Shown in pieces: positions 124 to 35,975 of a DNA stretch of 55,341 nt. The DNA comes from Dehalococcoidia bacterium (GTDB lineage Bacteria; Chloroflexota; Dehalococcoidia; UBA2979), in NCBI GenBank assembly GCA_041674885.1, contig JBAYUZ010000002.1, forward strand, positions 1 to 55,341, read 5' to 3'. A program made the position numbers and the translations under genes. The notes under the pieces were generated by a model, which saw only the letters and a program-made list of their open reading frames with translations, had not been told where the DNA came from and did not search any database. Numbering within the stretch: the first letter of the stretch is position 1; each line of letters opens with the position of its first letter.

Positions 124-335
124 CCATGCCGCCCATCCCAGAGCGCATGCGCGGCCTCGTGGAACGCGCCGCTGCGGCCAAGCCGATCGCCGACGTCGAC
201 GCATGGGCCGACCGGCTCGCGAGCGATCTCACCGACGCACTGCTTGCTGACGGCGAGACGGTGCGCGCCAACCTGCGCCGCGAAGTCGCGCCACTCGCCC
301 CGGCCGATGCGGACATGCGCCGGAGGCTCACATGA
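69..335 (+). CDS. hypothetical protein (88 aa)
   Basis: ORF track; GTG start overlaps (GTGA) the stop of the 36-aa ORF that ends at 55290 in the repeat copy; non-repetitive acidic/helical sequence. Confidence 0.6.
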   Translation: MSCATVAFDALLDDIAAGPMPPIPERMRGLVERAAAAKPIADVDAWADRLASDLTDALLADGETVRANLRREVAPLAPADADMRRRLT

Positions 336-466
336 GTTGCGCCATTGTAAGCGCCCTCAGCTTCGCGGCCCTCTGCGTGGCGCTGCTCGTCGCCGACGGT
401 CGCCGCGCGGACCGGCTTGAGCGTGAGCGGCTGGCACGGCAGCGGGCGAAGGCGGATCGGGCGTGA
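332..466 (+). CDS. small membrane protein (44 aa)
   Basis: Hand translation MSCAIVSALSFAALCVALLVADGRR...; ATGA overlap upstream and GTGA overlap downstream; one hydrophobic helix. Confidence 0.45.
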   Translation: MSCAIVSALSFAALCVALLVADGRRADRLERERLARQRAKADRA

Positions 467-1134
467 ACGCGCTCGGCCTCTGCATCGGCGACGGCAACGG
501 CGCGCCCGAGTTCCGTCGACAGTCCGCCGCGTGGCAGCAGTGGATGTTCGCGCGCGGGTACGGCGCCGATCTCTTCGTCCTCGATGTCGCCACACGCCCG
601 CTCGCGTATCGCTTCGGCCGTGTCGTGCACTGCATCGCGGACAACAGCGAGCCGTTTCGTCAGGTCGCGGTGTTCTGCCATGGGTGGTCAACCGGCCTGC
701 AACTGGTGCCGCGTCAGAGCGTCGCCGAGTTCGCTGCGGCCATCCGCCGTCACGAGCTCGCGCCGGGCTGCATCGTCACGCTCTACGCGTGCTCGGCCGG
801 CAGCGACACGCTCGCGAGCACATCCGAGATGAGCGGCGCCGGACCCGGTGGTGACGGCGGCTTCGCGGACCGGCTACGCGACGCGCTGTGTGCCGCGGGT
901 GACGTTCACTGCCGCGTAGACGCCCACTCCACGCCGGGCCATTTGGCTCGCAATCCGTACGTGCGCCGCTTCGAGGGCGGCGGCTCGGCATCGGGCGGCA
1001 TCGGCGGGCAGTGGCTCGTGACGCCGAAGTCCGCGCACTGGGCAGCGTGGCGCAAGGCGCTCGCGGGTGACCTGCGCTGGGAGTTCCCGCACCTCACGGC
1101 AGCGGAGATTCACGCGCGGCTCGCCACGCTCTGA
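463..1134 (+). CDS. hypothetical protein, possible alpha/beta-hydrolase-like esterase
   Basis: ORF track 223 aa; VAVFCHGWSTG and LYACSAGSD (AxSxG nucleophile-elbow-like) motifs; last gene of the rightward block. Confidence 0.6.
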   Translation: MNALGLCIGDGNGAPEFRRQSAAWQQWMFARGYGADLFVLDVATRPLAYRFGRVVHCIADNSEPFRQVAVFCHGWSTGLQLVPRQSVAEFAAAIRRHELAPGCIVTLYACSAGSDTLASTSEMSGAGPGGDGGFADRLRDALCAAGDVHCRVDAHSTPGHLARNPYVRRFEGGGSASGGIGGQWLVTPKSAHWAAWRKALAGDLRWEFPHLTAAEIHARLATL

Positions 1135-1165
1135 CCCGCATGCGCGAGGCGATCGCGGCGGGCGG

Positions 1166-1396
1166 CTAGGCCTGGTCGCACGCGCATGGCGCGTAGCCGC
1201 ACGCCCTGCACTCGCCGCGTTCGCGCGCCGCAGCCATTGCCCGGTCGGCTGACTCACGCGCCATCGCCTGCCGCAAAGCGCGCGCGACCCATCCCGAGTA
1301 GTCCATGCCGGCAGCCTTCGCTGCCTCGCGCGCGTAGTCGCGCAGCACCGGCTCGACCCACGCCGACAACATCACCCGGCCGTCTTTGTAGCTCAT
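1166..1396 (-). CDS. ribbon-helix-helix (CopG/Arc-like) protein (76 aa)
   Basis: Internal ATG of ORF 1166..1633 preceded by AAGGAG; RVMLSAWVEPVLRDYAREAAKAAGMDYSGWVARALRQAM fits a strand-helix-helix pattern. Confidence 0.6.
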   Translation of the reverse strand: MSYKDGRVMLSAWVEPVLRDYAREAAKAAGMDYSGWVARALRQAMARESADRAMAAARERGECRACGYAPCACDQA

Positions 1397-1419
1397 CGCC
1401 TCGCTCCTTCGGGCCTCGC

Positions 1420-1614
1420 TCACCTCCCACCCCGCGTCATCCCCGCCACCGCCAGCAGCGTCTCGCGCGCCCAGGTCGTGAGGTCGCGCCCGCCCGCAGC
1501 GGCCACCAGGGCGGCGCGCTCCGTCGCAGACAGGCGCAGCGGTAGCCGGAGCGTGCGCGCCTCGCTGGGCGGCATCTTGGGGCGGCCGGGGCCGCGCTTG
1601 GCGGGGGCGGTCAC
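1420..1614 (-). CDS. small RHH-like DNA-binding protein (64 aa), paralog of 32139..32321
   Basis: ORF track; MTAPAKRGPGRPK...LRLSATERAALVAAA; start overlaps the upstream stop; first ~26 nt identical to the paralog. Confidence 0.6.
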   Translation of the reverse strand: MTAPAKRGPGRPKMPPSEARTLRLPLRLSATERAALVAAAGGRDLTTWARETLLAVAGMTRGGR

Positions 1615-2021
1615 GAGGCGGCCTTCCCGGCAATCGCCCGCAGCGCGATCACGCGGGTATGGACGCGCCGCGCACCGTCGTTGGTGTAGGCGTGAGCGTA
1701 GGTCTTCTCCGCAACCTTCACGGCCGCGGGGACTTCGGCGCTCGTGTAGAGCGGGAGGTCATCAGCGATCAGCCGCACGGCACGCGCGCGCACCTTGGCC
1801 GCGTATGCGCTACGGCCCATCCCGAGGCCGCGAAGGTAGGTGCCGAGTCGGCGGCACGTGATCGACCCGTCGCTCCAGATCGAGAGCTTGACGCCGTCGG
1901 CCGTCTCGCGCGTCATGATGACGTGCGGCTCGCTGCACCCGCACGAGCAGAGCCGCGGGTCACGCTCGGCCGCGAGCGGGGTGCCGATGGTGGTGGTCTT
2001 GATTTCGTGCGTGGTGGTCAT
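1611..2021 (-). CDS. hypothetical protein (136 aa)
   Basis: Internal ATG (MTTTHEIK...) of ORF 1611..2054 preceded by GAGGAG; protein-like composition. Confidence 0.65.
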   Translation of the reverse strand: MTTTHEIKTTTIGTPLAAERDPRLCSCGCSEPHVIMTRETADGVKLSIWSDGSITCRRLGTYLRGLGMGRSAYAAKVRARAVRLIADDLPLYTSAEVPAAVKVAEKTYAHAYTNDGARRVHTRVIALRAIAGKAAS

Positions 2022-2103
2022 CGCCTCATCTCCTCTCGCGGCCATCTGGCGCACGTCCCTACCGTCGAGCGAGTCGGCGGCAGGGCGTGGGTCAGAGGAC
2101 GGG

Positions 2104-2520
2104 TCAGCCGCCGGTGCGCAGCACGCGCTTGTCGGCGGAGGTCATGATCTTCGCGGCGGCGGCCACGAGCGCGCCGTCGATTGCGTCCAGGTCGGCCACC
2201 GCGATCGCGTTGACGAGCAGCGCGTGGCTCGTGCGTGCGTGCAGTTCGCGCGACGCGGCCCGCTCAGCCTCGCCCCACTTCGCGACGTCGAGGGCAACGC
2301 GCACCTCCAGCGCCGCCTCGCGCGAGGCCATCACGTCGACGTCGACATAGACCAGCGACGCGTCCTCGCGGGCAATGGCGCGAGCGTCGTCGACGCTGAC
2401 GCCAGTGCGCGCCTCGGCGGTCGGGTCCGTGTGCGTGGAGAGCGTCAGTCCGAGGCGCTCCGCCGCTTCGATCGCCGTCTTGCCCGTGAGTCGCTTGGTC
2501 GTGGTGGTCATGGTCGTCAT
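2104..2520 (-). CDS. hypothetical protein (138 aa)
   Basis: Internal ATG (MTTMTTTTKRL...) of ORF 2104..2592; sits downstream of a low-GC intergenic island. Confidence 0.65.
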   Translation of the reverse strand: MTTMTTTTKRLTGKTAIEAAERLGLTLSTHTDPTAEARTGVSVDDARAIAREDASLVYVDVDVMASREAALEVRVALDVAKWGEAERAASRELHARTSHALLVNAIAVADLDAIDGALVAAAAKIMTSADKRVLRTGG

Positions 2521-2645
2521 CCTCTGTTGCGTCCCGGCGTCACTCGCCGTCGACTCAGATAATGTGCACCCGCTTATCGCGAGGTGCAACAACTATTTTC
2601 GGGGCCGATGTCGATTTGTTGGGCACACGCAAAACCCCTTGCGAA
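2521..2645 (-). promoter_or_regulatory. low-GC intergenic island inside the leftward operon (possible internal promoter/operator)
   Basis: Visibly AT-richer stretch (cagataatgtgcac, aactattttcgg, cgatttgttgg) with a CTTGCGA at 2637-2643; no credible ORF. Confidence 0.35.
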
Positions 2646-2951
2646 TCATGCGGGCAGGGCGGGCGCGACTCCGCCGCACGCGATGCAGCAAACGGCGCCA
2701 GCATGCGGCCCGGCGTCGGCCGTCGCTCGGCCGTAGGTCCGGTGGTCGCAGTAGTCGGCGCTCAGCACCCCGCCGAGCGTCGTCGTCACCCGCGGAGTCA
2801 CGCACGGGGCCAGTGCGCGAGCCGTCCGCGTGATCGTCTTGCCGCCGCTCGAGAGATCGACCGTCTCCACGGAGCCCACGAAATAGCGCCGCTCGCACAG
2901 GATCGGCGTGCCGTAGTAGTCGTAGACGCGGCCCTCTTGCCACGTGCTCAT
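2646..2951 (-). CDS. hypothetical protein (101 aa)
   Basis: Internal ATG (MSTWQEGRVYDYYG...) of ORF 2646..3101; ATGA overlap with the upstream gene. Confidence 0.6.
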   Translation of the reverse strand: MSTWQEGRVYDYYGTPILCERRYFVGSVETVDLSSGGKTITRTARALAPCVTPRVTTTLGGVLSADYCDHRTYGRATADAGPHAGAVCCIACGGVAPALPA

Positions 2952-3094
2952 CGCAGCGCCGCCAGCGCAGCGTCGAGCGCCTCGCGCTCGCCCGTGGTGC
3001 CGGCGGCGGTCACCATTTCGGCGAACACTGGAGTGCACCCTTGCGTGCTGCGCAGCCACCGCGCCGCGACGGTCACCAGTTCCGCGTGCGTCAC
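2948..3094 (-). CDS. hypothetical small protein (48 aa)
   Basis: GTG start with GAGGTGG 4 nt upstream; GTGA overlap with the stop of 3091..3495; fills the gap exactly. Confidence 0.4.
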   Translation of the reverse strand: MTHAELVTVAARWLRSTQGCTPVFAEMVTAAGTTGEREALDAALAALR

Positions 3095-3495
3095 GCCCCA
3101 CCTCGCCGCTTCAATTCCGCCGGCCGGATCGCGGTGCCCGTGAGCGGCGCGCGTGACCAGAGCGCGTCGATGCGGCGATGGTCGCACTCACGCGTGTCGG
3201 CGTGCGCGACGCTTCGCGCTGGCTTGCGGCGGTATGTCCACGGCCCGCAGTCGCCCGCATCCGCCCGCAGCAAGGCGCGCAGGGCCAGTGCGAGACGGGC
3301 GCGGAGGAGGCGCGCGCTCGGCACTTTCTGCGCAGCCAACTCGCGCATCGGCCTGGCAATGCTCCACGGCAGCACATCGACCGCCTCGCCTAGCGCGCGG
3401 TTCACAGCGGCCGAGAAGATGCGCGGCTCGCCGATGTCGCGCAGGCACTCGTATCCGTGCTCCAGCGCCTTCCTGTCCCGCCGCGTGAGCGTCAT
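3091..3495 (-). CDS. hypothetical protein (134 aa)
   Basis: Internal ATG (MTLTRRDRKALEHGYE...) of ORF 3091..3540. Confidence 0.6.
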   Translation of the reverse strand: MTLTRRDRKALEHGYECLRDIGEPRIFSAAVNRALGEAVDVLPWSIARPMRELAAQKVPSARLLRARLALALRALLRADAGDCGPWTYRRKPARSVAHADTRECDHRRIDALWSRAPLTGTAIRPAELKRRGGA

Positions 3496-3773
3496 GGCGT
3501 GCCCCGCGCGGTGACGGCATGGCGCAGCACGCGCGCCCACCGCGCGATCCGGCTCGCCACCTCACCATTGGACGGAGCGTTGCGGTCGGCCTCGTTCTCG
3601 ATGGTGACCGCGACCTCGTTCACGGCGCACCGCAGCGCCTCCAGTGCACGCGTCGCGTCGCTGAACTTCGCCCTCGCCGCATCCAGCGCAGCGAACACCT
3701 CCGCGCTCTGGTTCGCATCGAGCCCGTCGAGCTTGCGCAGCTGCGCCTCGCGCTCGGGGGTCCAGGTCGTCAC
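3492..3773 (-). CDS. hypothetical protein (93 aa)
   Basis: GTG start (VTTWTPEREAQLRKL...) in GTGA overlap with the stop of 3770..4279. Confidence 0.6.
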   Translation of the reverse strand: MTTWTPEREAQLRKLDGLDANQSAEVFAALDAARAKFSDATRALEALRCAVNEVAVTIENEADRNAPSNGEVASRIARWARVLRHAVTARGTP

Positions 3774-4279
3774 AGCGCACCTCGCAGCGCGCGGATCTTC
3801 CGTTCGATGCGCCGCGCGAGATCCGCCTTCGCGCTCGACCACCCGTGTCCCACATGGTCGCTCGCGTCGAGTTGCTTACGCGCGTCGACGTCCCAGTACG
3901 CAGCTTCGTCGGCAGCGATCTTCTCCGCCGCATCCAGCGCCGCGCGGAGGGCGTCGATCTCGGCAAGCAACTGCCGCTCGTTCACGACCTCGGCGGGGTG
4001 AACAACGTGCGCGCTGTACGCCTCCAGCCACGCTGCGTGCCTGCGACGGATCCCGGCCTCGTCGTCAGCGGTCATCTCCTTCGTCAGCGGCTCACGCATC
4101 GTCGCCCTCCGCACGTCCCAGTACGCAGCTTCGTCGGCAGCGATCTTCTCCGCCGCATCCAGCGCCGCGCGGAGGGCGTCGATCTCGGCGAGTAGCCGTC
4201 GGTGCTGGTAGTAGCGGTCCGCCGCACGAAACCGCGCCTCTTCCTCGACCGTCATCGTCACCGGCGCCCTACTTCCCAT
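3770..4279 (-). CDS. hypothetical helical protein (169 aa) with internal duplicated segment
   Basis: ATG at 4279 preceded by GGAGGAGGG; LLAEIDALRAALDAAEKIAADEAAYWDV occurs twice (77-nt perfect DNA repeat). Confidence 0.65.
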   Translation of the reverse strand: MGSRAPVTMTVEEEARFRAADRYYQHRRLLAEIDALRAALDAAEKIAADEAAYWDVRRATMREPLTKEMTADDEAGIRRRHAAWLEAYSAHVVHPAEVVNERQLLAEIDALRAALDAAEKIAADEAAYWDVDARKQLDASDHVGHGWSSAKADLARRIERKIRALRGAL

Positions 4280-5513
4280 CGTCGCCCTCCTCCGCGCTCG
4301 CGCGCTCGTCGTCCTCGTCCGGCTCGTAGTCGTCGTGCTCCGACCGCTCCGCGCCTTCGGCGATGGCCGCGTCGATGCAGTCCGGCGCACATCGCTCTCC
4401 GCCGACTGCGTGGCAGCCGGGGCAGACGTACGGCGCGGACTCTTGCGCGCTCTCGTCGTCGCCCTTGCATGCGTCGCAGAGCTCCGGCGCGCCTACGCCG
4501 ATGAACAGCGTCGGATACCAGCATCGCGCACACGGGGCACGCCCAGTTGCGTACGACCACGCCGCGATCCGGTCGCCTTCCTGCGCGTCGCGGGTGGCGA
4601 GCATCTCCCGCGCCTCTTGCGTCCGCGCCGCATGCGCGGTCAGTTCCGCGCGCAGGCCGCGAATCGCCAGCAGCGCGCCGGCCGGCGACGATTCGTACGG
4701 CGCCTGCGTGAGTCGCAGCGCATCGTAGATGCACGTGAGCGCGGCGTCGCGGCTGACGGTTCCCGCCCGCAGCCGCCCATTCTCGGCGAGGGCGGCGTCG
4801 CGTTCCTTCGCGCACTCGTCGCGGTCGGTGACGATGTGCCGCACCGCAGCGAGCGGCTCGACGCCGATGCGTGCGCCCGTCAGCGCAATGATGCGCGCGG
4901 TCCACTGGTCGACGACGCGGCGGGCGTCGTCGCGCTCGGACTCGGCGATGGCCGTCCGCGCAATCCCATCGTCGCGCTCCGCAGCCACTCGCGCGAGGTC
5001 GGCGGAGCGCGCTTGCATCAGGTCCGACAGTCGCGCGGCGTCGACGAGTGCACGGTCGCGCTCCGCCTCCGCCTCGCGGCAGATCGCCAGCGCCTGATCG
5101 CGGCTGTTGAGGTAGTCGCCTGCGACGCGCTGCCAGTCGTCCCGCTCCGCCGTGAGTCGCGCGAAGCCGGCGAGCACAGCTCCGTCCGGCTGCACCCACG
5201 CGGCGGCGCACTCCGCCTTGAGCCGCTCCACCTCCACCCGCAGCCGCTCGCACTCCGCGAGGGCCTCGGTCGCCTTGCGGTGCCAGTGCGCGACGGCCGC
5301 ACTCTCCTCGACAGGCGGCGGCGCGTCGGGCAGCGAGACGAGGCGCATCGTCGTGGCATCAGGGCAGGGCCATGGCGATCCGTCCGGCGGCCTGCGCATA
5401 TTGATGTCGCCGCTCCCGTTCCGCTCTCCGACGAGCAGATCGCAGCCGAAGTCATCGCGCACCACCGCGCCCGCCGGCAGGTCCCCGATGCGCACGACGT
5501 CTCCGGCCTTCAC
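4269..5513 (-). CDS. coiled-coil protein with Cys-rich acidic C-terminus (414 aa)
   Basis: GTG start (VKAGDVVRIGDL...) in the conserved AAGTGA junction; long helical E/R/A region; C-terminal CARCW...CDAC...CPGC...CAPDC. Confidence 0.7.
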   Translation of the reverse strand: MKAGDVVRIGDLPAGAVVRDDFGCDLLVGERNGSGDINMRRPPDGSPWPCPDATTMRLVSLPDAPPPVEESAAVAHWHRKATEALAECERLRVEVERLKAECAAAWVQPDGAVLAGFARLTAERDDWQRVAGDYLNSRDQALAICREAEAERDRALVDAARLSDLMQARSADLARVAAERDDGIARTAIAESERDDARRVVDQWTARIIALTGARIGVEPLAAVRHIVTDRDECAKERDAALAENGRLRAGTVSRDAALTCIYDALRLTQAPYESSPAGALLAIRGLRAELTAHAARTQEAREMLATRDAQEGDRIAAWSYATGRAPCARCWYPTLFIGVGAPELCDACKGDDESAQESAPYVCPGCHAVGGERCAPDCIDAAIAEGAERSEHDDYEPDEDDERASAEEGDDGK

Positions 5514-6220
5514 TTCGCACCGCCGATCTGCGCGGGGCCGAAGGCGACGACCCACACCCACGGGTTGCGCTCCCACGCGCCGCGGCCGTTGATGACGTCC
5601 CAGAGTTCCGAGTACGCGTCGCGATGCGTCAGCCCTTGCGCCGTGCCTCCGCACTCACTGCACCAGTCCGGATCGACGCCGCCGACGCGCACCGGATCGA
5701 TGCCAGTCCCGCGGCAGCGTGCGCACGGGGTCACCCCCTCCGCCCGCGCGTCCGCCTCCGAGATTTCCTGCAAGCGCTCGACGCGGATCGCGGTCACCGG
5801 CAGCGTGATGCGGGACGCCCATCGCGGCATATGGATCGACGGGCGCCAGCGGCCACAGTCGACGACGTCGTCACCGTCTGCGCGGTACTGGATCGGCAGC
5901 GTCTCTTCGTCGTGGTCCTTGCCGTTGCACTCCAGGCTGTAGGCCCACGTCTCGCGCACCCACAGCGCGTCACCAGCCGCGCCGTAGGGGCACGGCTTCC
6001 CTGGCGTGGACCGCAGCATGGCCATCATCGCCGGACTCGGCTCCGCCTTAGCATCGGTGAAGCACGGCATACCGTCGGAGCCGGTCACCATCATCGCGAG
6101 CGAGTGGTCGCGTTGCCAGTCGGTGAATCCCAGCTTCACAGCGCGCCGCGTCTGGGACTTACGACCCGCGAGAATCGCCCTGATCATCGGGCTCGAGAAC
6201 AAGATCGGTCGCTCTTTCAT
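5510..6220 (-). CDS. ASCH/PUA-like domain protein with DnaJ-type zinc finger (236 aa)
   Basis: MKERPILFSSPMIRAILAGRKSQTRR N-terminus typical of phage ASCH-like proteins; CARCRGTG...CSECGGTA (CxxCxGxG x2); GGAGGG RBS. Confidence 0.65.
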   Translation of the reverse strand: MKERPILFSSPMIRAILAGRKSQTRRAVKLGFTDWQRDHSLAMMVTGSDGMPCFTDAKAEPSPAMMAMLRSTPGKPCPYGAAGDALWVRETWAYSLECNGKDHDEETLPIQYRADGDDVVDCGRWRPSIHMPRWASRITLPVTAIRVERLQEISEADARAEGVTPCARCRGTGIDPVRVGGVDPDWCSECGGTAQGLTHRDAYSELWDVINGRGAWERNPWVWVVAFGPAQIGGAK

Positions 6221-6360
6221 CGCACCCTCCACGTCATCACCAGCCCGTGCACACCGATCGAGACCAACGACCACGCGACGGCACCGCGGCCGAGCAGATT
6301 CGCCGGCAGCCAGAGAGCGCAGCCGAGCAGCAGCAGGGCGAGGGCGCGGAGGCGGATCAT
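6217..6360 (-). CDS. small membrane protein (47 aa)
   Basis: Hand translation MIRLRALALLLLGCALWLPANLLGRGAVAWSLVSIGVHGLVMTWRVR; ATGA overlaps at both ends. Confidence 0.45.
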   Translation of the reverse strand: MIRLRALALLLLGCALWLPANLLGRGAVAWSLVSIGVHGLVMTWRVR

Positions 6361-8560: not shown

Positions 8561-8644
8561 GTCGCGAGCCCTACCATGGGCGCTTGCGACGCGCAAGGAT
8601 TTTTTCGCGGTTGCGTCGCGCTTGCAACGTGCTAGTGACCCGCG
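8561..8644. promoter_or_regulatory. divergent promoter/operator region between the RHH gene and the csf1-like gene
   Basis: Leftward: TTGCGC (rc 8591-8596), 17 nt, TAGGGC (rc 8568-8573), 7 nt, ATG. Rightward: TTGCGT (8611-8616), 16 nt, TAGTGA (8633-8638), 6 nt, GTG. Palindrome CTTGCG-ACG-CGCAAG at 8583-8597 followed by T6. Confidence 0.5.
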
Positions 8645-9604
8645 GTGACGCCGACACGCGACCTCTTTGCGCTCGCCGGATCGCCCGCGCAAGTCGGCTG
8701 CGACGCACCGACGCCGGGTTGCCCGGTCTGCGCACTGCCATGCGAGCGGAGCATGCCGTACGGGCGATGGCAAGGATCGACCTTCACCGACCAAGACAAG
8801 CTGCGCGGACACGGCCTCTCCGATCGTATCTGCGAGCCGTGCGCGTGGGTGCATTCGTGGGTTGTGCCGCCTGGCCACGCGCCGCCGGAGCCCGGAAAGA
8901 AAGGCGTCAACCTGCGCCTTTTCTGGCACGCGCACGACGAGCGCGGATACGTCTACGGCAACAAGGGCGACAAGGCCACGATCCGCGACTGGCTCCGCGC
9001 TCCAAAGGTCGGCGCGTGGTGGTCCGCGATCGCAGACAGTGGCCAGAAGCACGTTGTCCCATGGACGCCCGTGAATCGTGGCGCGTCGACGATCGTGCGA
9101 CTCGAGCAACGCAACATCGCGATTGGCGACTGGTCGCTCGTCGACGCGATGACGGCAGCGCTCACGGCCGGCGTGACCAAGGGCGAGATCGCGACTGGCA
9201 TCTACACGCCGCGAGCATGGCAGTTGGCCGAGTGTCACGTGCGCGAGCTGCAGACGCGGCCGGAGTTGTTCGGCGGGTGGTGGGAGCTGGCGCTGTGGCT
9301 TTCGCAGCGCGACGAGGCGGCAGTGGCGGATCGAATGGCGGCAGAGAAGGAGGCTCGCGATGCTCGACGAAGCGAAGGCGGACGCGGTGCGGGACGCCGC
9401 GGTGGCGGTGATGATGGCGACGCGAAGCGAATACCTGCGCGCCGGGGCAAGCGCGCTGAAGCACTGGGACCAGCTGCACGACCGGTTCCACCTGGCACTG
9501 CGAACGTCGAGCACGGCGCAACAGCTGGTGACGGCGCTGCGGAGAGGGCTGCGCCTGTCGGCGCCCAGCTCGGACTCTTCGGCGGCGGCAGTGGCACTGA
9601 CTGA
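8645..9604 (+). CDS. csf1: Csf1-like (Cas8-like) large subunit of a type IV effector complex
   Basis: ORF track 319 aa; N-terminal Cys pairs CPVCALPC...CEPCAW (zinc-finger-like); first gene of a csf2/csf3 operon; the last ~80 codons are R/G-rich and overlap the next gene. Confidence 0.55.
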   Translation: MTPTRDLFALAGSPAQVGCDAPTPGCPVCALPCERSMPYGRWQGSTFTDQDKLRGHGLSDRICEPCAWVHSWVVPPGHAPPEPGKKGVNLRLFWHAHDERGYVYGNKGDKATIRDWLRAPKVGAWWSAIADSGQKHVVPWTPVNRGASTIVRLEQRNIAIGDWSLVDAMTAALTAGVTKGEIATGIYTPRAWQLAECHVRELQTRPELFGGWWELALWLSQRDEAAVADRMAAEKEARDARRSEGGRGAGRRGGGDDGDAKRIPARRGKRAEALGPAARPVPPGTANVEHGATAGDGAAERAAPVGAQLGLFGGGSGTD

Positions 9605-9773
9605 CGCGATGGATGCCGACCCCACCGCGTACATGGACCTGCTGGAGTCTGAGATCGGGCTCGTGATGGCGCGCGCTCGGCTGGAGTCGGAGAGGCGGCG
9701 CGATGCGCGCGACGCGAGCGATCTGGCGCGGATGATGGATGCGGCGATCGAAACGCCGCGTGGAGGCGAGTGA
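9360..9773 (+). CDS. cas11: Cas11-like small subunit (137 aa, all-helical)
   Basis: ORF track; own AAGGAGG RBS 7 nt upstream; sits between the csf1-like and csf2 genes; helical Ala/Leu/Arg-rich sequence. Confidence 0.5.
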   Translation: MLDEAKADAVRDAAVAVMMATRSEYLRAGASALKHWDQLHDRFHLALRTSSTAQQLVTALRRGLRLSAPSSDSSAAAVALTDAMDADPTAYMDLLESEIGLVMARARLESERRRDARDASDLARMMDAAIETPRGGE

Positions 9774-10774
9774 TGCAGCAGCACCGAATTGAGATCATTC
9801 TGCGAGCGCAAGAGCCCATCGCACACGCGGAGGGCACGATCGGAAACAGCCAGGTGGCGATGCGGCGCAAGGTGCGATTGCCAAGCGGGCGGTGGACGAA
9901 GGTGCCTTACGTCACCGGCGACACGATGCGCCACGGGCTGCGTGAGGCCGGCACGTACGCGCTGCTCGAGGCGGCCGGCTTGCTGCACGAGGGGCCGGCA
10001 CTGACCGAGGCCGCGCTGCGTCTGCTGTTCAGCGGCGGCATGGTGCTGGGCGCGGCCGGCGACGTCGTGAAGATCGACGAAGCGCGTGCGTTCCGCGAGA
10101 TGCTGCCGCACATCTCGCTGCTCGGCGGCTGCGTCGGGAACCGCATCGAGCCCGGCAAGATCGAGGTGCGCGACGCGATGCTGATTTGCGACGAGTGGCT
10201 ACACCTCACGCCACGATGGATGATCGACTGGATGACGGCAGAGGGCGTCGAGAGCAGCGGCGCGCGCGAGCATCTGGAGATGGTCCAGCGCGTGCGCATG
10301 GACCCGTCGCTTGACCCGAAGAAGCGACTCCTTCTCTCGTCGGGCGAAGAGGCCAACGTGCAGACTCGATTGCTCGCCAGCGAGGCGGCGAGTGCGCGCG
10401 ACGACGACGCCGGCAAGGACCGCGCGAAGTCGACGATGATGCCGTTTTCGTACGAGACGATCGCGGCCGGGTCGATGTTCTCCTGGGGCATCGACTGCGT
10501 GACGCACACGCAGATCGAGCACGACACGCTGTGGGTGATGCTCGCGGCGTTCCTCGCTCGCGCTCGCGTCGGCGGAAAGAAGGGTACGGGGCATGGGCTG
10601 CTCGTGCCGGTGATCGCGCGCGGCATGGATCGTGAGATCGTGGCGACGACGCCAGACATGGACGCGCTCGACGTGACCGGCGACGCGCGTGCACCGGAGC
10701 TCCAACGCTACGTGGCGCACGTCCAGGCGCGGAAGGCGGAGATCCGCGCTGCGCTCGACAAGGTGATCGCGTGA
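9770..10774 (+). CDS. csf2: Csf2 (type IV Cas7 backbone RAMP protein)
   Basis: ORF track 334 aa; VPYVTGDTMRHGLREAG (RAMP motif) and C-terminal G-rich loop GGKKGTGHGLL; GTGA-type coupling to both neighbours. Confidence 0.7.
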   Translation: MMQQHRIEIILRAQEPIAHAEGTIGNSQVAMRRKVRLPSGRWTKVPYVTGDTMRHGLREAGTYALLEAAGLLHEGPALTEAALRLLFSGGMVLGAAGDVVKIDEARAFREMLPHISLLGGCVGNRIEPGKIEVRDAMLICDEWLHLTPRWMIDWMTAEGVESSGAREHLEMVQRVRMDPSLDPKKRLLLSSGEEANVQTRLLASEAASARDDDAGKDRAKSTMMPFSYETIAAGSMFSWGIDCVTHTQIEHDTLWVMLAAFLARARVGGKKGTGHGLLVPVIARGMDREIVATTPDMDALDVTGDARAPELQRYVAHVQARKAEIRAALDKVIA

Positions 10775-11430
10775 TCCCGCTGCGCGTCCTGGCGGATCTC
10801 GAGACGCGCCTCGTGCTCCCTGTCGAAGGCATCCACCTCGACGCGCTGCTGATGGCGGCGGTGGCGCGTCGTGACGGCCTTCCACCGCTGCGCACGATGG
10901 CGGAGGCGCGCGACGCGGAGGCGCCAGCTATTCCGCTCGCGCTGTCTGCGTGTGGCCGCTACTACCAATGCACGACGTCGATCGTGCACGTCGAAGGGCG
11001 CGAGCATCGGTGGGTGAACCGGCGCTTTCCGCTCGCCGAAGCAGTCGCGATGGGCGGCCCGACGGTGAAGCGCCTGCAGCTCTCGGCGGGGGCAGCGAAG
11101 GGCTATCGCATCCCTGTCGAGGCGACGCACGCGCGGTGCCTCACGTGGTACGCGGTCGGCGATCTCTGGGCCGTGCGCGAGTTGCTCTCGCTGGTGACGA
11201 GCCTCGGGAAGCGGCGCGCGGTAGGCGAGGGTCGCATCATCGCGTGGCGCATCGACGCGATTGACGAAACGTGGCCAGGCTTCCCTACGCATGCGTCGGA
11301 CGGCGCACCGATGCGCAACCTGCCTGTGGACGCCGTGACGAGCGGAGCGCATGTGCTGCGGGTGGGGCGCGTGCGCCCACCGTACTGGTCGCGCACGGAC
11401 GAGGAGATGGTGGCGGCGCCGTGCCTCTGA
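10771..11430 (+). CDS. csf3: Csf3 (type IV Cas5-like RAMP protein)
   Basis: ORF track 219 aa; IHLDALLMAAVARRDGLPP N-terminus and LGKRRAVGEGRIIAW G-rich loop; directly follows csf2. Confidence 0.6.
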   Translation: MIPLRVLADLETRLVLPVEGIHLDALLMAAVARRDGLPPLRTMAEARDAEAPAIPLALSACGRYYQCTTSIVHVEGREHRWVNRRFPLAEAVAMGGPTVKRLQLSAGAAKGYRIPVEATHARCLTWYAVGDLWAVRELLSLVTSLGKRRAVGEGRIIAWRIDAIDETWPGFPTHASDGAPMRNLPVDAVTSGAHVLRVGRVRPPYWSRTDEEMVAAPCL

Positions 11431-12143
11431 TCATCACGCCGCGGCATACAGATCGCGATCTGGCGCACTGGCGCACGTGCGAAAAGGTGGACGCTCTGAC
11501 CGCGCAGAGGCGCGCGCCACGGCTGCGCGAGATGGCCGCTCGTGCGGGCGACGTGGCCGCGGCGTTCGCTCGCGGGGGCGGATACGCCGGGGTGTCGTGG
11601 GGGAAAGACTCTGTTGTCGTCGCGTCCATTCTCGCCGAGCATCGCACCGATCTCCCGCTGGTGTGGGTTCGCGTCGATGCGTGGGAGAATCCCGACTGCG
11701 AGTTGGTACGTGACGCGTTCCTCGCGCGCTTCGATGTGCGGTATCACGAGATCAGAGTGGCAATCGGACCCAACCGGCACGGCGGGACTCTGTCGCTCGG
11801 ATTCGCGGAGGCTGCGGAGCGATTCGGAGCCCGATACATTTCGGGCGTGCGCGCAGACGAGAGTGCCATTCGCCGCGCGTCAATGGGCCACCACGGAATC
11901 ACGACAAAAAACACGTGTCGGCCGATCGGCAAGTGGAGCACGGCCGACGTGTTCGCGTACTGCGCGCTGATGGATCTGCCGCTGCATCCCGCATACGGCT
12001 ACACGATGGGCGGCATCTACGATCGGATGCGCCTGCGCACCGCATCGCTCGGAGGCGTCCGCGGCGCAGGCCACGGGCGCGCAGAGTGGGAGCGCGTCTA
12101 CTACGGCGTGCGACACGAGGGGACGCAGCGATGGCTTCCGTGA
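11421..12143 (+). CDS. CysH-like PAPS reductase / PP-loop ATP-pyrophosphatase family protein
   Basis: SWGKDSVVV (PP-loop SGGKDS-like), GVRADESAIR, CRPIGKWSTADVFAYCALMDLPLHPAY; GTG at 11421 overlaps the csf3 stop (start uncertain). Confidence 0.8.
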   Translation: MPLIITPRHTDRDLAHWRTCEKVDALTAQRRAPRLREMAARAGDVAAAFARGGGYAGVSWGKDSVVVASILAEHRTDLPLVWVRVDAWENPDCELVRDAFLARFDVRYHEIRVAIGPNRHGGTLSLGFAEAAERFGARYISGVRADESAIRRASMGHHGITTKNTCRPIGKWSTADVFAYCALMDLPLHPAYGYTMGGIYDRMRLRTASLGGVRGAGHGRAEWERVYYGVRHEGTQRWLP

Positions 12144-12874
12144 CGCTCACCGACGCCGACTGGTCCGCGCCGTGCGTGTCGTTCGATCGCGAGACGCTAT
12201 GTGTAGGCACGCCGATCGCGCTCGACGGCTACCGACATCCACTCGTCATGCGCGAGTTGGCGTGGCTACACGCCGCGCTCACCGGCGCGATCGGGCGCGG
12301 GCACGCGAAGCCATCGCACTGCACTCCGGCCGACTGGTCGCTGGTGCCATGGGATGCGCCGAGCGGCTGGGCGGTCGCGTGGTGGTCAGAGGCGGACGCG
12401 GCTGCGCTCTCTGCGACGGTGCGCCCGTCACGCATCGGCGCCGTCGAGTGCAGCCTCGCGATCGGCGCACGCGTACGCGTGCACGTCCCGCCCGCGTACG
12501 TACCCGGCGCGCACCTCGTGCGCCTATCGCTGCGTACGCCGCTCGTCGTGACCAGCACGCAGAGCGACGGCCGCAAGCGCAGCGCGCAGCACGCGACGAG
12601 CGCGACGATGCTGTCCGCCGCATGGACGCTCGCGCGCAAACTCGGCGTGCATCCGCAAGCGCTCGCGGTATCCGTGCTCGACGCGCGCACAACGAGCGGA
12701 GGTGTGGACTATCGCGGCAAACTCGGCCGCGTGGAGGGGCTTGCCGGCACCGTCGATCTCGCGTGCAACGCGCCCGCGCGGTGGCTCTTTGAGTGCGCGT
12801 CGCGCGGGCTTGGACTCGGCGCGCGCACGGCGTACGGGTGCGGCCGCGTGGAGACAACGACGCTCGCGCGTTGA
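12131..12874 (+). CDS. Cas6-like RAMP protein (247 aa)
   Basis: ATG with GAGGGG 8 nt upstream; C-terminal glycine-rich loop GLGLGARTAYGCGRV preceded by GTVDLACNAPARWLFECAS, as in Cas6 endoribonucleases. Confidence 0.5.
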   Translation: MASVTLTDADWSAPCVSFDRETLCVGTPIALDGYRHPLVMRELAWLHAALTGAIGRGHAKPSHCTPADWSLVPWDAPSGWAVAWWSEADAAALSATVRPSRIGAVECSLAIGARVRVHVPPAYVPGAHLVRLSLRTPLVVTSTQSDGRKRSAQHATSATMLSAAWTLARKLGVHPQALAVSVLDARTTSGGVDYRGKLGRVEGLAGTVDLACNAPARWLFECASRGLGLGARTAYGCGRVETTTLAR

Positions 12875-12973
12875 CAATCGACGCGGCGCGCGAAAATAAA
12901 TCTTGCGCGTCGCTTGCGTTGTGATATTGATATGGAGTCGACGCGAGGTGACGCGCCGACGGGGAGGCTGACG
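12872..12973 (+). promoter_or_regulatory. low-GC promoter-like island downstream of the cas-like operon
   Basis: TTGACA 12872-12877; TTGCGC (12903-12908), 16 nt, TATTGA (12925-12930); CTTGCGCGTCGC 12902-12913 repeats the 8586-8597 operator-like 12-mer (reverse strand). Confidence 0.45.
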
Positions 12974-13282
12974 ATGGCGACGTATCGACTGACCGACAGC
13001 GAGCGCGACGAGATTCTCGAGATCTCGAAGCCGGTAGCGATGATTGCTCTTCACTGCGGCAACCCCGCCGCGAATCAGCGCGAGATGGCGATGTCCTTCT
13101 GGCGCCGCGTCTCGGCGCGCGTCGGCTGTCTCGTCGACACGATCGGCGCTGGCGGCACTCGCGACATCCGCGACTTCACCGCGCAGCCCGATCCGTCGTG
13201 GGTCGCGCCGGTAGTTGCGCCAGCCGCTGAGCCCGCGCCCGAGTGCAAGACGTTCGACGTCGTCGACGGAGTCGCGTCGTGA
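12974..13282 (+). CDS. hypothetical protein (102 aa)
   Basis: ATG (MATYRLTDSERDEILE...) with GGGGAGG 6 nt upstream, within ORF 12914..13282. Confidence 0.6.
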   Translation: MATYRLTDSERDEILEISKPVAMIALHCGNPAANQREMAMSFWRRVSARVGCLVDTIGAGGTRDIRDFTAQPDPSWVAPVVAPAAEPAPECKTFDVVDGVAS

Positions 13283-20710: not shown

Positions 20711-20855
20711 CCGGCGTCGGGACGAGTCAGCAGCCGTTGCTGCGGTGCATGCTGCGAAGCGAGCCGGTTTCCCCTATCCCGGCGCGCAATGATCACGGCG
20801 TGTGGCTGGCGCGTCCCGACGATTTTACCGCCCCGGCAAGGGCAGATAGGACAGC

Positions 20856-21839
20856 ATGGCAGTCGAGACTCAGCAGGTAGAAATCCGTCGCGTCCGCATC
20901 GACGGCGGCACGCAGATCAGGGCCGACCTCTACGATCCAGCGGTGCTCGCGGAGTACGCGGAGGCGCTCAAGTCGGGGGCAAAGTTTCCGCCGATCCACG
21001 TCGTCGAGGAAGGAGACGACCTCTGGCTCGTCGATGGCTTCCATCGGCACGCCGCCCACCTCCGCGAGAAGCGCGGCGTCATTGACGCGCAGGTCAAGCA
21101 GGGCACTCGGCGCGATGCGATCCTTGCTGCCGTAGGCGCCAACCGGACCCACGGACTGCGACGGACGAACGCCGACAAGCGAGCCGCTGTCGCTCTGCTC
21201 TTGGCGGACGCTGAATGGTCGGGGAAGTCGAACCGGTGGATCGCGGAGCGGTGCGGCGTCAGCGACCACTTCGTCGCAGCGCAGCGCCCTGAGCCCGAGG
21301 CAACTGCGCGAAAACGCAGTACAGACATTCCAGATTCCGAGCCCGTCAGGCGCGAGGGCAGGGACGGGAAGCCGCGCCCGGCGACGGCGAGCAAGTCGCC
21401 CGTAGCGGCGGCCCGCGCCGTCGCGGTGCCGGCCGCGCGAGCGCCAGCCCCCGCGGCGCTACTCGACGCCATGGGGCGCGAGGTACCGGCCGCGCTCGCG
21501 CCGTTGTGGCGCGCGCTCGTCGAGTCGTACGACGTCACCAGCGCCGCCGTCGATGCGCTGCGCGCAGCCAGCACCGCACAGCGCGCTGCCGTGACGCGAC
21601 TGGCGAAGGGCCGCGAGGGCACCGTGATGCTGCACGCCACGGTACAGGCGTGGGGCGTTGGGCAGGCATGCTCTGCAGCTCGCCACGCCGCAGACGAGAC
21701 GCGGCCGCACATCGTGTGCCCAGAGTGCGACGGGACGGGCGGCCGGGCTGGTGCGTGGTGTACGCACTGCGGCGCATGCGGATGGCTCACGGCGTCAGCG
21801 CTCGAGCGGCGCGCGCGAGGGGCGAAGGTGCGCCGATGA
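20856..21839 (+). CDS. ParB/Srx-like N-terminal domain protein with C-terminal DnaJ-type zinc finger
   Basis: ORF track 327 aa; LVDGFHRHAA ParB-box motif; C-terminal CPECDGTGG...CTHCGACG. Confidence 0.75.
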   Translation: MAVETQQVEIRRVRIDGGTQIRADLYDPAVLAEYAEALKSGAKFPPIHVVEEGDDLWLVDGFHRHAAHLREKRGVIDAQVKQGTRRDAILAAVGANRTHGLRRTNADKRAAVALLLADAEWSGKSNRWIAERCGVSDHFVAAQRPEPEATARKRSTDIPDSEPVRREGRDGKPRPATASKSPVAAARAVAVPAARAPAPAALLDAMGREVPAALAPLWRALVESYDVTSAAVDALRAASTAQRAAVTRLAKGREGTVMLHATVQAWGVGQACSAARHAADETRPHIVCPECDGTGGRAGAWCTHCGACGWLTASALERRARGAKVRR

Positions 21840-23461
21840 CCGTCACGCTGCGACCGTACCAAGACGAATGCATCGCTTCGATCGAGCGCGAGCACGGGGA
21901 GAAGGGCCTGCGATCGACGCTGATCGTACTCGCGACGGGACTCGGGAAGACGACGATCTTTGCGGAGTGGGCGCGGCGTCGACTCGAACGTCACGGCGGG
22001 CGCGTGCTGGTCCTCGCGCACCGCGAGGAACTCGTTCAGCAAGCGGCCGACCGCATGCGCATGCAGGTCCCCGGTGTGCAGGTTGGGATCGAGATGGCTG
22101 GCCGCGTGACGTCGACGCTGATGCCGGAGTCGATTGTGGTCGCCAGCGTGCAGACGCTCGGCAAGCTCGCGCGCCTGAAAAAGTTCGATCCGTGGCAGTT
22201 CACGTCGCTCATCATCGACGAAGCGCATCACTCGTGCGCTGACGGATACCGCACGATCATCGACTATTTTTCGGCTGCGCAAGTGCTCGGCGTGACCGCT
22301 ACGCCCGACCGTCTCGACGGGGTAGGACTTGGCGGGATCTTCGATTCGTGCGCGTACCGCATGGAGATGCAAGAGGGCATCGCGGGCGGCTACCTCGTGC
22401 CGATCATCGCACGCCGAATCGTCTGCGAGTCGCTGGATCTATCGCGGCTGCGCACTGTGCGTGGTGACCTGTCGGAGAAGGATCTCCAGCAGGCGATGTC
22501 AGTCGACAAGGTGCTGCACGAGATGGCCGGTCCGCTCGTGCGCGAGGCGGGCGATCGTTCAACGATCGTGTTCACGCCGGGCGTCCAAGTTGCACACGCG
22601 CTCGTCGATGTCCTCGCGGCGTACACCAGCGCGCGCGCCTGCGCGATCGATGGCACCACCGATTCGACGGTGCGGCGCGAGGTGCTTGCCGCCTACGCTG
22701 CCGGTGACATCCAGTTCTTGATCAACTGCGCCGTGTTGACCGAGGGCTTTGACTCTCCGCGCACGTCATGCGTCGCTCTCGGCCGGCCGACGAAATCGCG
22801 CGCGCTGATGACGCAGTGTATCGGCCGCGGAACTCGGCCGGCGGAGGGGAAGAGCGATCTACTCGTCGTCGACTTCGCCGGCATCGTCGGGCGCCATGTA
22901 CTCGTCGCGCCGCTCGACGTGCTCGGCGGTGAGGATATGCCACCGCTCGTGCGCGAGCGCGCCCTAGAGCTCGTGGACCAGGGCGAGTCCCTGGACCGGG
23001 CGAGGGCGCAGGCGGAGAGAGAGGCGACCGAAGCGGAGCGTGCACGGAAGGCGCGCGAGCGTCTTGCAGAGGAAGAGGCCGCCCGTCGCAAGGCCGCCAA
23101 GGTCTCGAGCGAGGCACGGTACGCGGCGCGCAACGTGGACCCGTTCGGGACTAAGATACTGGCGATCCCCGAGGATCGGGGAGGCGAGCGCGCGAGCGAT
23201 CGGCAGCGGGAGATCCTTGCGCAGTTCGGCGTCGAGATCCCGAACCTCTCAGCGGAGCAAGCGCAGGCGGCTATCGGCTCCCAGATCGCGCGTCGCAAGC
23301 ACGGACTCGCATCGTTCAAGCAGGCGCGTCTCCTTCAAAAATATGGGTATTCGCCCGACTTGAGCAAGGCCGATGCGTCGATCGTGATCTCCGCAATCGT
23401 CGCAAACGGATGGTCGCGGCCCGCGAAAGATCCGCTTGACGGTCGCGCGCCCGTCGGCTAG
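21836..23461 (+). CDS. SF2 DEAD/DEAH-box helicase (541 aa)
   Basis: ATGLGKT (motif I), DEAH (II), TATP (III), QCIGRGTR (VI); ATGA overlap with the ParB-like gene. Confidence 0.85.
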   Translation: MTVTLRPYQDECIASIEREHGEKGLRSTLIVLATGLGKTTIFAEWARRRLERHGGRVLVLAHREELVQQAADRMRMQVPGVQVGIEMAGRVTSTLMPESIVVASVQTLGKLARLKKFDPWQFTSLIIDEAHHSCADGYRTIIDYFSAAQVLGVTATPDRLDGVGLGGIFDSCAYRMEMQEGIAGGYLVPIIARRIVCESLDLSRLRTVRGDLSEKDLQQAMSVDKVLHEMAGPLVREAGDRSTIVFTPGVQVAHALVDVLAAYTSARACAIDGTTDSTVRREVLAAYAAGDIQFLINCAVLTEGFDSPRTSCVALGRPTKSRALMTQCIGRGTRPAEGKSDLLVVDFAGIVGRHVLVAPLDVLGGEDMPPLVRERALELVDQGESLDRARAQAEREATEAERARKARERLAEEEAARRKAAKVSSEARYAARNVDPFGTKILAIPEDRGGERASDRQREILAQFGVEIPNLSAEQAQAAIGSQIARRKHGLASFKQARLLQKYGYSPDLSKADASIVISAIVANGWSRPAKDPLDGRAPVG

Positions 23462-23744
23462 CACTGCGGTGGGCGGTCGATTCGTTCGGCCGGTCGAGAG
23501 TAGGGACCTCGACGCTTCGACGCGACCGAGCAAGCCGGCAGCGGCGCGCGGGAACGGAGAAGATCACCGCCTCCCACCGGACAACGGAATGCCATACGCA
23601 AACCGCCCGGACTCGGCCGATCACGGTCATGGGGGGTAGGGGGGTCTTACTCCGCTCTCTCGCGCCGGTGGGATGAGGACGTGTCTTGGTTCGGTTGTCT
23701 TGGTCTTGGATTGGATACGGGCAGCAACCCGGAGAGGATGAGAG

Positions 23745-32019: not shown

Positions 32020-32131
32020 GGCTGCGGCTCGGTAGGTCGCGAGGCGCGACAAGGGCAAGGACGCTGCGGACGCCTCCCCGCACGCGCACCTACCCTATAG
32101 GCGGGTTCGACTCCCGCACCGGGCCGCAGCC
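32020..32131 (+). other. structured tRNA-like element in a convergent intergenic gap
   Basis: 9-bp closing helix GGCTGCGGC/GCCGCAGCC; inner helix GGTAGGT/ACCTACC; hairpin GTCGCG-AGG-CGCGAC; canonical T-arm GCGGG-TTCGACT-CCCGC (32101-32117). Confidence 0.35.
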
Positions 32132-35842: not shown

Positions 35843-35913
35843 GTCACGCTGGGGCAACGGTAGCCCGGCGGCCTCATAAGCCGCAGCTCGTGGTTCGATT
35901 CCACGGCGTGACC
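35843..35913 (+). tRNA. tRNA with CAT anticodon (Met, or Ile2 if lysidine-modified)
   Basis: Hand-folded cloverleaf: acceptor GTCACGC/GCGTGAC, D arm GGGC-AACGGTA-GCCC, anticodon arm GCGGC-CTCATAA-GCCGC, T arm CGTGG-TTCGATT-CCACG. Confidence 0.8.
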
Positions 35914-35975
35914 CCCAGGGCCATCAACACGTGCGCGGCGCTTTCCAAAGCCGTGACCAGAGGAGACGCGACGAC

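Follow-up and report, generated by a model that had tools for sequence, protein, structure and literature searches.

Cas6L, a divergent Cas6 in a phage type IV-B operon

The 55-kb stretch of DNA analysed here (contig JBAYUZ010000002.1, positions 1 to 55,341; hereafter the window) is a tailed-phage genome that carries a type IV-B CRISPR-Cas operon on the + strand, in the order csf1-cas11-csf2-csf3-cysH-like-cas6L. We find that the last gene, cas6L, encodes a divergent but genuine Cas6-family protein: its product, Cas6L, has the Cas6 fold, belongs to a large family with invariant residues, is linked to type IV-B genes, and has no CRISPR array in the window. The gene is an intact open reading frame (ORF) of 247 codons plus stop, from the ATG at 12131 to the TGA at 12872-12874, and the C-terminal sequence that the original prediction quoted for the last gene of the operon (...GTVDLACNAPARWLFECASRGLGLGARTAYGCGRVETTTLAR) is found in it exactly. 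The first 13 nt of cas6L coincide with the end of the cysH-like gene, stop codon included (12141-12143), and a Shine-Dalgarno-like run, GAGGGGA, precedes the ATG; the overlap and this ribosome-binding-like run indicate that cas6L is translationally coupled to the cysH-like gene. Many alternative ORFs overlap the region, and the 247-aa homologues of Cas6L start at the same methionine. The features of the gene are as follows.

12131-12874, + strand: cas6-like gene (Cas6L), a 247-aa two-RRM repeat-associated mysterious protein (RAMP), assigned by its AlphaFold2 model, Foldseek and family profile matches
12269-12271, + strand: codon of His47, the candidate catalytic histidine, in helix alpha1 (40-54) by the AlphaFold2 secondary structure; invariant
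12302-12304, + strand: codon of His58, in the alpha1-beta2 loop, the sole low-confidence part of the AlphaFold2 model; present in most sequences
12806-12844, + strand: glycine-rich loop G226-L-G-L-G-A-R-T-A-Y-G-C-G238, between helix 214-227 and strand 240-244; core glycines invariant

Fold and family assignment

We modelled Cas6L with AlphaFold2 from its family alignment (predicted local distance difference test, pLDDT, 90.6; predicted template modelling score, pTM, 0.88). The model consists of two successive beta-alpha-beta-beta-alpha-beta (ferredoxin/RRM) domains, with strand (E) and helix (H) elements at E22-32, H40-54, E69-84, H87-93 and E96-118 and then at E128-151, H157-171, E180-212, H214-227 and E240-244, so that the protein is, as predicted, a double ferredoxin/RRM RAMP in which the glycine-rich loop joins the last helix to the last strand. 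In a Foldseek search of the PDB, ranks 1 to 35 were all Cas6, Cas6b or Cas6e (E down to 7e-8), with template modelling (TM) scores of 0.55-0.62 for the full-size Cas6 proteins. These matches include 3qjj, 5yi6, 4c9d, 3ufc, 6fjw, 4c8y, 4ilm and 3pkm, and the type IV-A Cas6 structures 6njy and 7xfz_H. The first Cas5-like match, Cmr3 (4h4k), appeared only at rank 36, with a TM score of 0.32, which settles in favour of Cas6 the choice between Cas6 and Cas5/Cas7 that the original prediction had left to a structural comparison.

The sequence searches place Cas6L in a family of its own. The 90%-identity protein database holds 23 homologues, all unnamed and metagenomic, two of which carry a precomputed PF10040 (CRISPR_Cas6) assignment, and PF10040 is matched by 12 of the 24 aligned close members (best E=2.2e-6). 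A profile search of 1.84 billion representatives returned 281 clusters (at 50% identity) with E<1e-3, of which 252 fall at E<1e-10 and only 29 between 1e-10 and 1e-3; the scarcity of intermediate matches shows that the family is sizeable, sharply bounded and well separated from canonical Cas6. The generic PADLOC Cas6 profile (PDLC01650) is matched by 87 of 98 diverse family members, and other Cas6 profiles down to 8.5e-12. The PADLOC typeIV_Cas6 models are matched by three of the 98, weakly (2.8e-4 to 2.1e-3), and not by the window protein. PDB sequence-profile searches with Cas6L gave sub-threshold Cas6 matches at the glycine-rich loop, with a weak alignment to the PfCas6 loop (3pkm). By structural definition Cas6L is a Cas6, and it is not Csf5. 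Searches of PLSDB plasmids and INPHARED phages by tblastn, and of BFVD by structure, gave no match to Cas6L.

The family also varies in its domain composition. Many longer members (P0037, P0045 and others) have a CxxC...CxxxC zinc ribbon at the N-terminus, which the window protein lacks, and a few of 600-780 aa have large unannotated N- and C-terminal extensions (P0043, P0052, P0063). One 254-aa protein, P0023, from a 1146-nt JGI contig, combines the zinc-finger region of Csf1 in its N-terminal half with the second RRM of Cas6L in its C-terminal 115 aa, and is either a deletion product or an assembly chimera that joins csf1 to cas6L.

Conserved residues and candidate active site

Residue conservation was assessed over 167 aligned domain sequences, mostly cluster representatives at no more than 50% identity, and a second alignment gave the same result. 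His47, G230, G236 and G238 are invariant (167/167), His58 is kept in 150 of the 167 (90%) and position 232 is R or K in 92%, while the overall identities among the aligned members are only 25-50%. The G-h-G-x(5)-G-h-G loop that had been predicted is found as G228-L-G230-ARTAY-G236-C-G238, and because three of its glycines are invariant it is not a chance run in GC-rich DNA. The catalytic-type residues of Cas6L thus appear, from this alignment, to be under purifying selection.

Three elements build the active site of TtCas6A and TtCas6B: helix alpha1, the alpha1-beta2 loop, which is disordered without RNA and bears the catalytic His37 or His42, and the loop that precedes the last strand (PMC3902920). 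With His47 in alpha1 and His58 in the alpha1-beta2 loop, the placement of the Cas6L histidines would fit a working Cas6 active site.

Linkage of Cas6L to type IV-B genes

Wherever a fetched locus included enough flanking DNA, Cas6L adjoins type IV-B genes. The survey comprised 12 loci from protein look-ups and IMG/VR, five contigs of metagenome-assembled genomes, 16 viral loci retrieved through Csf2 and 33 metagenome contigs, and no member of the family was seen outside a type IV-B context among the loci examined. The five genome-bin contigs come from Deltaproteobacteria, Acidobacteria, Sorangium and a Bacteroidetes bin, and were found with a degenerate DNA pattern for the glycine-rich loop; a contig scan with peptide patterns from close relatives of Cas6L gave no loci. 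The ORF of cas6L is intact in all loci.

The position of the gene within the operon varies. It lies between csf3 and cysH in the commonest order, directly upstream of csf1 in a third, and after cysH only in the subclade of the window (Csf2 at least 66% identical), so the original description of a cas6 gene appended to the module suits this subclade but not most relatives. That the linkage survives such rearrangement argues for a shared function of cas6L and the type IV-B genes.

Among 30 viral type IV-B loci retrieved with the Csf2 alignment, 16 have Cas6L and 18 have some Cas6, and the presence of Cas6 is patchy over the Csf2 similarity tree. Two of these loci have no Cas6L and carry instead, in the same part of the operon, a gene of the Cas6e family (PF08798, 34 and 79 bits, above the Pfam threshold), which is specialised for type I-E repeats:

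L039 9508-10401: Cas6e/CasE-family gene in a sister phage type IV-B locus without array (PF08798)
L049 8666-9523: Cas6e/CasE-family gene in a sister phage type IV-B locus without array (PF08798)

The catalytic histidine is seemingly retained in both, judging from a comparison by eye with the N-terminal motif of E. coli CasE. The Cas6e genes of these sister loci indicate an independent recruitment, which points to selection for Cas6 activity as such.

Some further features of the related loci concern neighbouring DNA. The last 21 nt of cas6L (GAGGTCACGACGCTCGCGCGT) are re-duplicated in tandem about three times directly after the stop codon in two relatives (L008 7253-7316 and L006 ~4790-4850; Tandem Repeats Finder period 21). 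Several loci have a small conserved ORF between csf3 and cysH or over the start of cysH (L052 9326-9802, L053 9624-10292, L034 9576-10586, L039 10187-11260), and three of these loci are without any Cas6; the ORF has the motif W-x-I-T-x-H-A-x-x-R-[YW]...LWRG..P.R.RFVV...LVTVL and no Pfam match, and may be another type IV-B accessory gene. In a related Mu-like phage (L001 3687-6467), Acb5-like, CMP-sugar transferase (CTP_transf_3) and NeuB genes stand immediately upstream of the type IV-B module.

The type IV-B operon and its phage

The other genes of the window operon are the following.

8645-9604, + strand: csf1, Cas8-like large subunit with CxxC zinc-finger motifs (PADLOC typeIV_Cas8 Csf1_0_IV E=1.8e-16, residues 17-225; TIGR03114 E=6e-4)
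9360-9773, + strand: cas11, small subunit (PADLOC typeIV_Cas11 E=1.5e-5), kept in all close relatives
9770-10774, + strand: csf2, Cas7 backbone subunit (PADLOC Csf2_0_IV E=5.7e-45; TIGR03115 E=1.9e-11)
10771-11430, + strand: csf3, Cas5 (PADLOC Csf3_0_IV E=5.1e-40; TIGR03116 E=9.6e-18)
11421-12143, + strand: cysH-like gene with the 3'-phosphoadenosine-5'-phosphosulfate (PAPS)-reductase / PP-loop fold, the signature accessory gene of type IV-B (PF01507 E=9e-7)

The start of the cysH-like gene, GTG 11421, was inferred from the 240-aa homologue in L025; its translation has the SWGKDS P-loop and lacks the C-terminal catalytic cysteine. The csf1 ORF overlaps cas11 by 245 nt in a different frame, and the Csf1 profile match stops near residue 225 of 319, the remaining tail being of low complexity; this overlap may be genuine, or else reflect a read-through artefact or a frameshift site.

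The locus thus has the type IV-B gene set by PADLOC and NCBIfam (csf1, cas11, csf2 as a IV-B-type Cas7, csf3), with no array, no adaptation genes and no DinG/RecD helicase. Its type IV-B genes are flanked by small phage ORFs, and the sole helicase of the window (21506-23461) lies 9 kb off, among genes of phage replication type. The subtype is also defined by having no Cas6 or other enzyme that processes CRISPR RNA (crRNA), and in this the locus departs from it owing to Cas6L; it is a variant of type IV-B rather than canonical type IV-B, and agrees with the subtype in every other respect considered.

The phage nature of the window is given by its terminase, portal, prohead protease and helicase genes; the terminase is remote from those of Mu/B3-like phages (~26% identity). 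A tRNA-Met (CAT anticodon) encoded at 35843-35915 (+), among structural genes, is the only significant match in an Rfam scan of the window. In the closest relatives (L025 3702-13713, L026, L027) the type IV-B cassette lies between homologues of window 4280-6359 and 332-2560 and in the same orientation as these, whereas in the window it is located elsewhere, on the opposite strand to 332-6359; the cassette has moved or been inverted between related phages.

Proposed mechanism

We favour, with moderate confidence, the reading that Cas6L works as an active Cas6 on a stem-loop RNA provided in trans: it would cut this RNA and stay as the 3' cap for an assembly of Csf3, Csf2, Cas11 and Csf1, with the CysH-like enzyme as effector partner. 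The catalytic activity of Cas6L, its retention in the Csf complex and the identity of its RNA are what we infer here. Cas6L would bind the stem-loop through its two RRM domains and the glycine-rich loop, and would cleave at the base of the stem by metal-independent acid-base catalysis, with His47 and probably His58, leaving a 2',3'-cyclic phosphate and a 5'-OH. Like Cas6/Csf5 in type IV-A, it would then stay bound to the 3' hairpin, and Csf3, the Csf2 filament, Cas11 and Csf1 would assemble on this defined RNA and not on random cellular RNA, with the CysH-like enzyme as the presumed effector partner. The leading candidates for the substrate would be host CRISPR transcripts or other hairpin RNAs in trans. 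The recruitment of Cas6e, a specialist of type I-E repeats, in sister loci makes us lean towards host CRISPR transcripts, although this is only a lean.

A bolder possibility, which we offer tentatively, is that phage type IV-B systems with Cas6L are RNA-guided machines that make guides without a CRISPR array. Hairpins would be cut in host precursor crRNA (guide theft), or in ordinary host or phage transcripts, the products would be loaded in the Csf filament and the CysH-like enzyme would be directed to complementary nucleic acid. If true, array-independent guide biogenesis would be seen here for the first time in a natural class 1 effector, and the function of type IV-B would be explained.

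Evidence against the proposed mechanism and the search for its RNA

Several observations weigh against the proposed mechanism. The first concern the protein and its distribution: the window Cas6L has no significant Cas6 sequence-profile match (no Pfam or NCBIfam match; PADLOC Cas6 E=0.026, residues 177-238), and about 40% of the related viral type IV-B loci lack a detectable Cas6, as do the more distant loci of Skermania phage SPI1 and two Rhodococcus plasmids, where an HMM search found no Cas6L. Since type IV-B loci exist without Cas6, the subunit is not essential to type IV-B function in general, and the IV-B complex of Mycobacterium, which has no Cas6, assembles on heterogeneous RNA (PMC7937560). 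The others concern the RNA. Four kinds of scan of the window (Tandem Repeats Finder, direct-repeat search, Rfam and k-mer periodicity) revealed no CRISPR array, which bears out the earlier claim that the module is array-less, and repeat and k-mer periodicity scans of ~85 fetched loci found none either. Neither a mini-array nor a recurrent hairpin was found in the window. In relatives, conservation extends neither to the intergenic DNA before csf1 nor to that after cas6L, and the latter differs already in a relative with a 95% identical Cas6L.

The association with a CRISPR array that is expected of a Cas6 gene is thus missing, but this is a contextual and not a structural feature. The substrate of Cas6L is not an adjacent, cis-encoded CRISPR array, and the two alternatives put forward in the original prediction, a non-CRISPR hairpin RNA or hijacked host CRISPR transcripts, are reasonable candidates.

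A number of array look-alikes were rejected. Periodic "arrays" of 63 nt in L005, L006, L008 and L009 have spacings that are all multiples of 3 and lie inside a minus-strand ORF; their source is a tail-fibre-like protein of 21-aa xITLGALTSSSAGTVAIDGDA repeats (L008 9159-10244, -; also in the other three loci). Array-like repeats in L062 and L070 are coding low complexity, Gly/Tyr-rich and Lys/Arg-rich, and a match to the Rfam family CRISPR-DR23 at 39837-39867 is taken to be due to chance (26.9 bits, where the gathering threshold is 45; E=0.65; inside a gene).

Perfect hairpins of at least 8 bp number seven in the 55 kb and share no sequence. The intergenic regions that the original prediction had proposed as RNA substrates fared poorly, none of them being conserved in relatives or repeated in the genome. 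There is no clear structure signal on the + strand of 8561-8644, 12875-12973 and 23462-23744 (z > -1.3); the minus strand of 12875-12975 reaches z = -2.8 and 20711-20855 is marginal (z = -2.1). The sole strongly structured region among these candidates is 32020-32131 (+), 112 nt long and single-copy, with a minimum free energy of -68.3 and z = -5.0. About 14 bp form its closing stem, the inner part of which can be aligned to a tRNA acceptor stem, and it contains a canonical T-arm (GGCGGGUUCGACUCCCGC); its Rfam match to tRNA-Sec is weak (22.5 bits, where the gathering threshold is 47) and ARAGORN makes no call. The T-arm motif is absent from the 28 loci searched. The region is located between the protease gene and a small ORF, and may represent either a tRNA-like element or a tRNA that has degenerated.

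Two further elements were found. An imperfect inverted repeat of ~48 nt (~8576-8630 and 12866-12914) brackets the operon from csf1 to cas6L, with an alignment score of 39-40 against 14.9 +/- 2.6 in shuffles (z ~9); in its left copy a T-run comes after a terminator-like hairpin (8583-8597). Of seven close relatives tested, six showed no such repeat (L025, L026, L005-L008) and the seventh, L009, gave z = 2.0; the more distant L001 has a gapped match (z = 5.3). The second element is a promoter with a 45-nt leader (GTCGACGGCGAGTGACGCCGGGACGCAACAGAGGA..ATGACC) at 2500-2556 on the minus strand, single-copy in the window; this promoter and leader are conserved in L025 11007-11063, L026 4470-4531 and L005 372-433 at 82-98% identity, though the downstream coding sequences diverge.

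Alternative explanations

Of the other explanations considered, the one that survives best, though unlikely, is that Cas6L is a non-catalytic structural RAMP, a relic of a type III-like ancestor whose sole role is to cap the Csf complex by binding RNA, or that is decaying. Non-catalytic Cas6 homologues do exist (they are mentioned in PMC3902920), and both the loss of Cas6L from some 40% of related loci and the drift of the window protein below profile thresholds would fit with decay. The conservation of His47 and His58 at such low overall identity is, however, hard to explain without catalysis or a precise contact with a phosphate, and intact ORFs are found throughout the loci.

It is also unlikely that Cas6L is a stand-alone counter-defence protein, an anti-CRISPR that binds or cuts the repeats of host precursor crRNA apart from the Csf complex and so sequesters or mis-processes guides. 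The gene is phage-borne without an array of its own, and the type I-E specialisation of the Cas6e family found in sister loci would suit this role. Against it, cas6L is strictly linked and translationally coupled to the csf and cysH genes, over three gene orders, which favours a shared complex or pathway, and among the loci examined no member of the family was found outside a type IV-B context. Sponging of crRNA has been proposed for type IV-B (PMC7038947; PMC8175902), but type IV-B is negatively correlated with other CRISPR-Cas systems in its hosts (Pinilla-Redondo et al., PMC7038947).

We consider it improbable that Cas6L processes phage transcripts or host non-coding RNA in a regulatory role, such as mRNA maturation or host shut-off, unrelated to guide loading. 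The operon lies in an early or middle gene region and the genome has structured elements, for example 32020-32131 and the conserved early leader at 2500-2556; these candidates are, however, single-copy, and in relatives they show no linkage to cas6L; hairpin motifs do not recur in the genome, and the exclusive association with csf genes would be left unexplained. Finally, it is scarcely credible that Cas6L falls outside the Cas6 family altogether, whether as a further RAMP of Cas5 or Cas7 type or as a spurious ORF in GC-rich DNA, as the missing Pfam and NCBIfam matches and the overlapping ORFs might suggest, given a frame conserved in 23 close homologues and ~280 clusters, the unbroken run of Cas6 structures above Cmr3, and the presence of Csf2 and Csf3 in the operon already.

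Significance

Type IV-B is, to our knowledge, the least understood CRISPR-Cas subtype. It is treated in the literature as having no processing enzyme (PMC8175902, PMC11656645, PMC12669027), and reviews and the classification update up to 2024-2025 describe it as without array or processing enzyme, with function and RNA partner unknown. The premise of the original prediction that described type IV-B loci lack Cas6 is essentially right but not absolute, as "rare exceptions: only 12 instances" were reported by Pinilla-Redondo et al. (PMC7038947). In the literature searched, the size and distinctness of the Cas6L family, its invariant histidine, its exclusive linkage to type IV-B, its ~50% prevalence in related phage type IV-B loci and the parallel recruitment of Cas6e are not described.

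These results indicate that Cas6-bearing type IV-B loci are not a handful of oddities, since they make up about half of the related phage type IV-B loci and have recruited two Cas6 families; this prevalence and double recruitment bear on both the crRNA-scavenging and the crRNA-sponging hypotheses for type IV-B. As a fold Cas6L is ordinary, and it is the context that makes the question of the type IV-B RNA directly testable: a conserved Cas6, predicted to be catalytically competent, in a large phage-borne type IV-B clade is a direct experimental handle on that RNA.

Comparison with known systems

Canonical Cas6 proteins (PF10040 / PF01881), such as those of P. furiosus and P. horikoshii (3pkm, 3qjj), TtCas6A/B (4c8y, 4c9d) and S. 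thermophilus (6fjw), share with Cas6L the tandem ferredoxin/RRM architecture, a size of ~240-260 aa, the C-terminal G-h-G-x5-G-h-G loop before the last strand, and conserved histidines in alpha1 and the alpha1-beta2 loop. Cas6L differs from them in forming a separate family cluster, with 10-16% identity in structural alignments, and in its surroundings, as in the loci examined it is never beside an array and, given enough flank, always beside type IV-B genes. Cas6e (Cse3/CasE, PF08798) belongs to a different Cas6 subfamily, whose profile the window protein does not match, and from its equivalent operon position in L039 and L049 it looks like a functional analogue of Cas6L.

The known type IV-B systems (the Csf complex of Mycobacterium sp. 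JS623, the Rhodococcus plasmids and Skermania phage SPI1) resemble the window locus in having csf1-cas11-csf2-csf3 and a cysH-like gene on a mobile element, with no array, adaptation genes or helicase. The clade of the window adds to these a conserved Cas6, which the HMM search did not find in SPI1 and the two Rhodococcus plasmid loci.

Type IV-A has a CRISPR array and a DinG helicase and no cysH gene, in contrast with the window locus, and the structural match of Cas6L to type IV-A Cas6 is no better than to type I/III Cas6. Even so, the type IV-A Cas6/Csf5 (M. australiensis 6njy; chain 7xfz_H of the IV-A Csf complex) and Cas6L are both Cas6-fold subunits of a type IV operon, and the mechanism that we propose for Cas6L is that of the type IV-A enzyme, which matures crRNA and remains part of the Csf complex.

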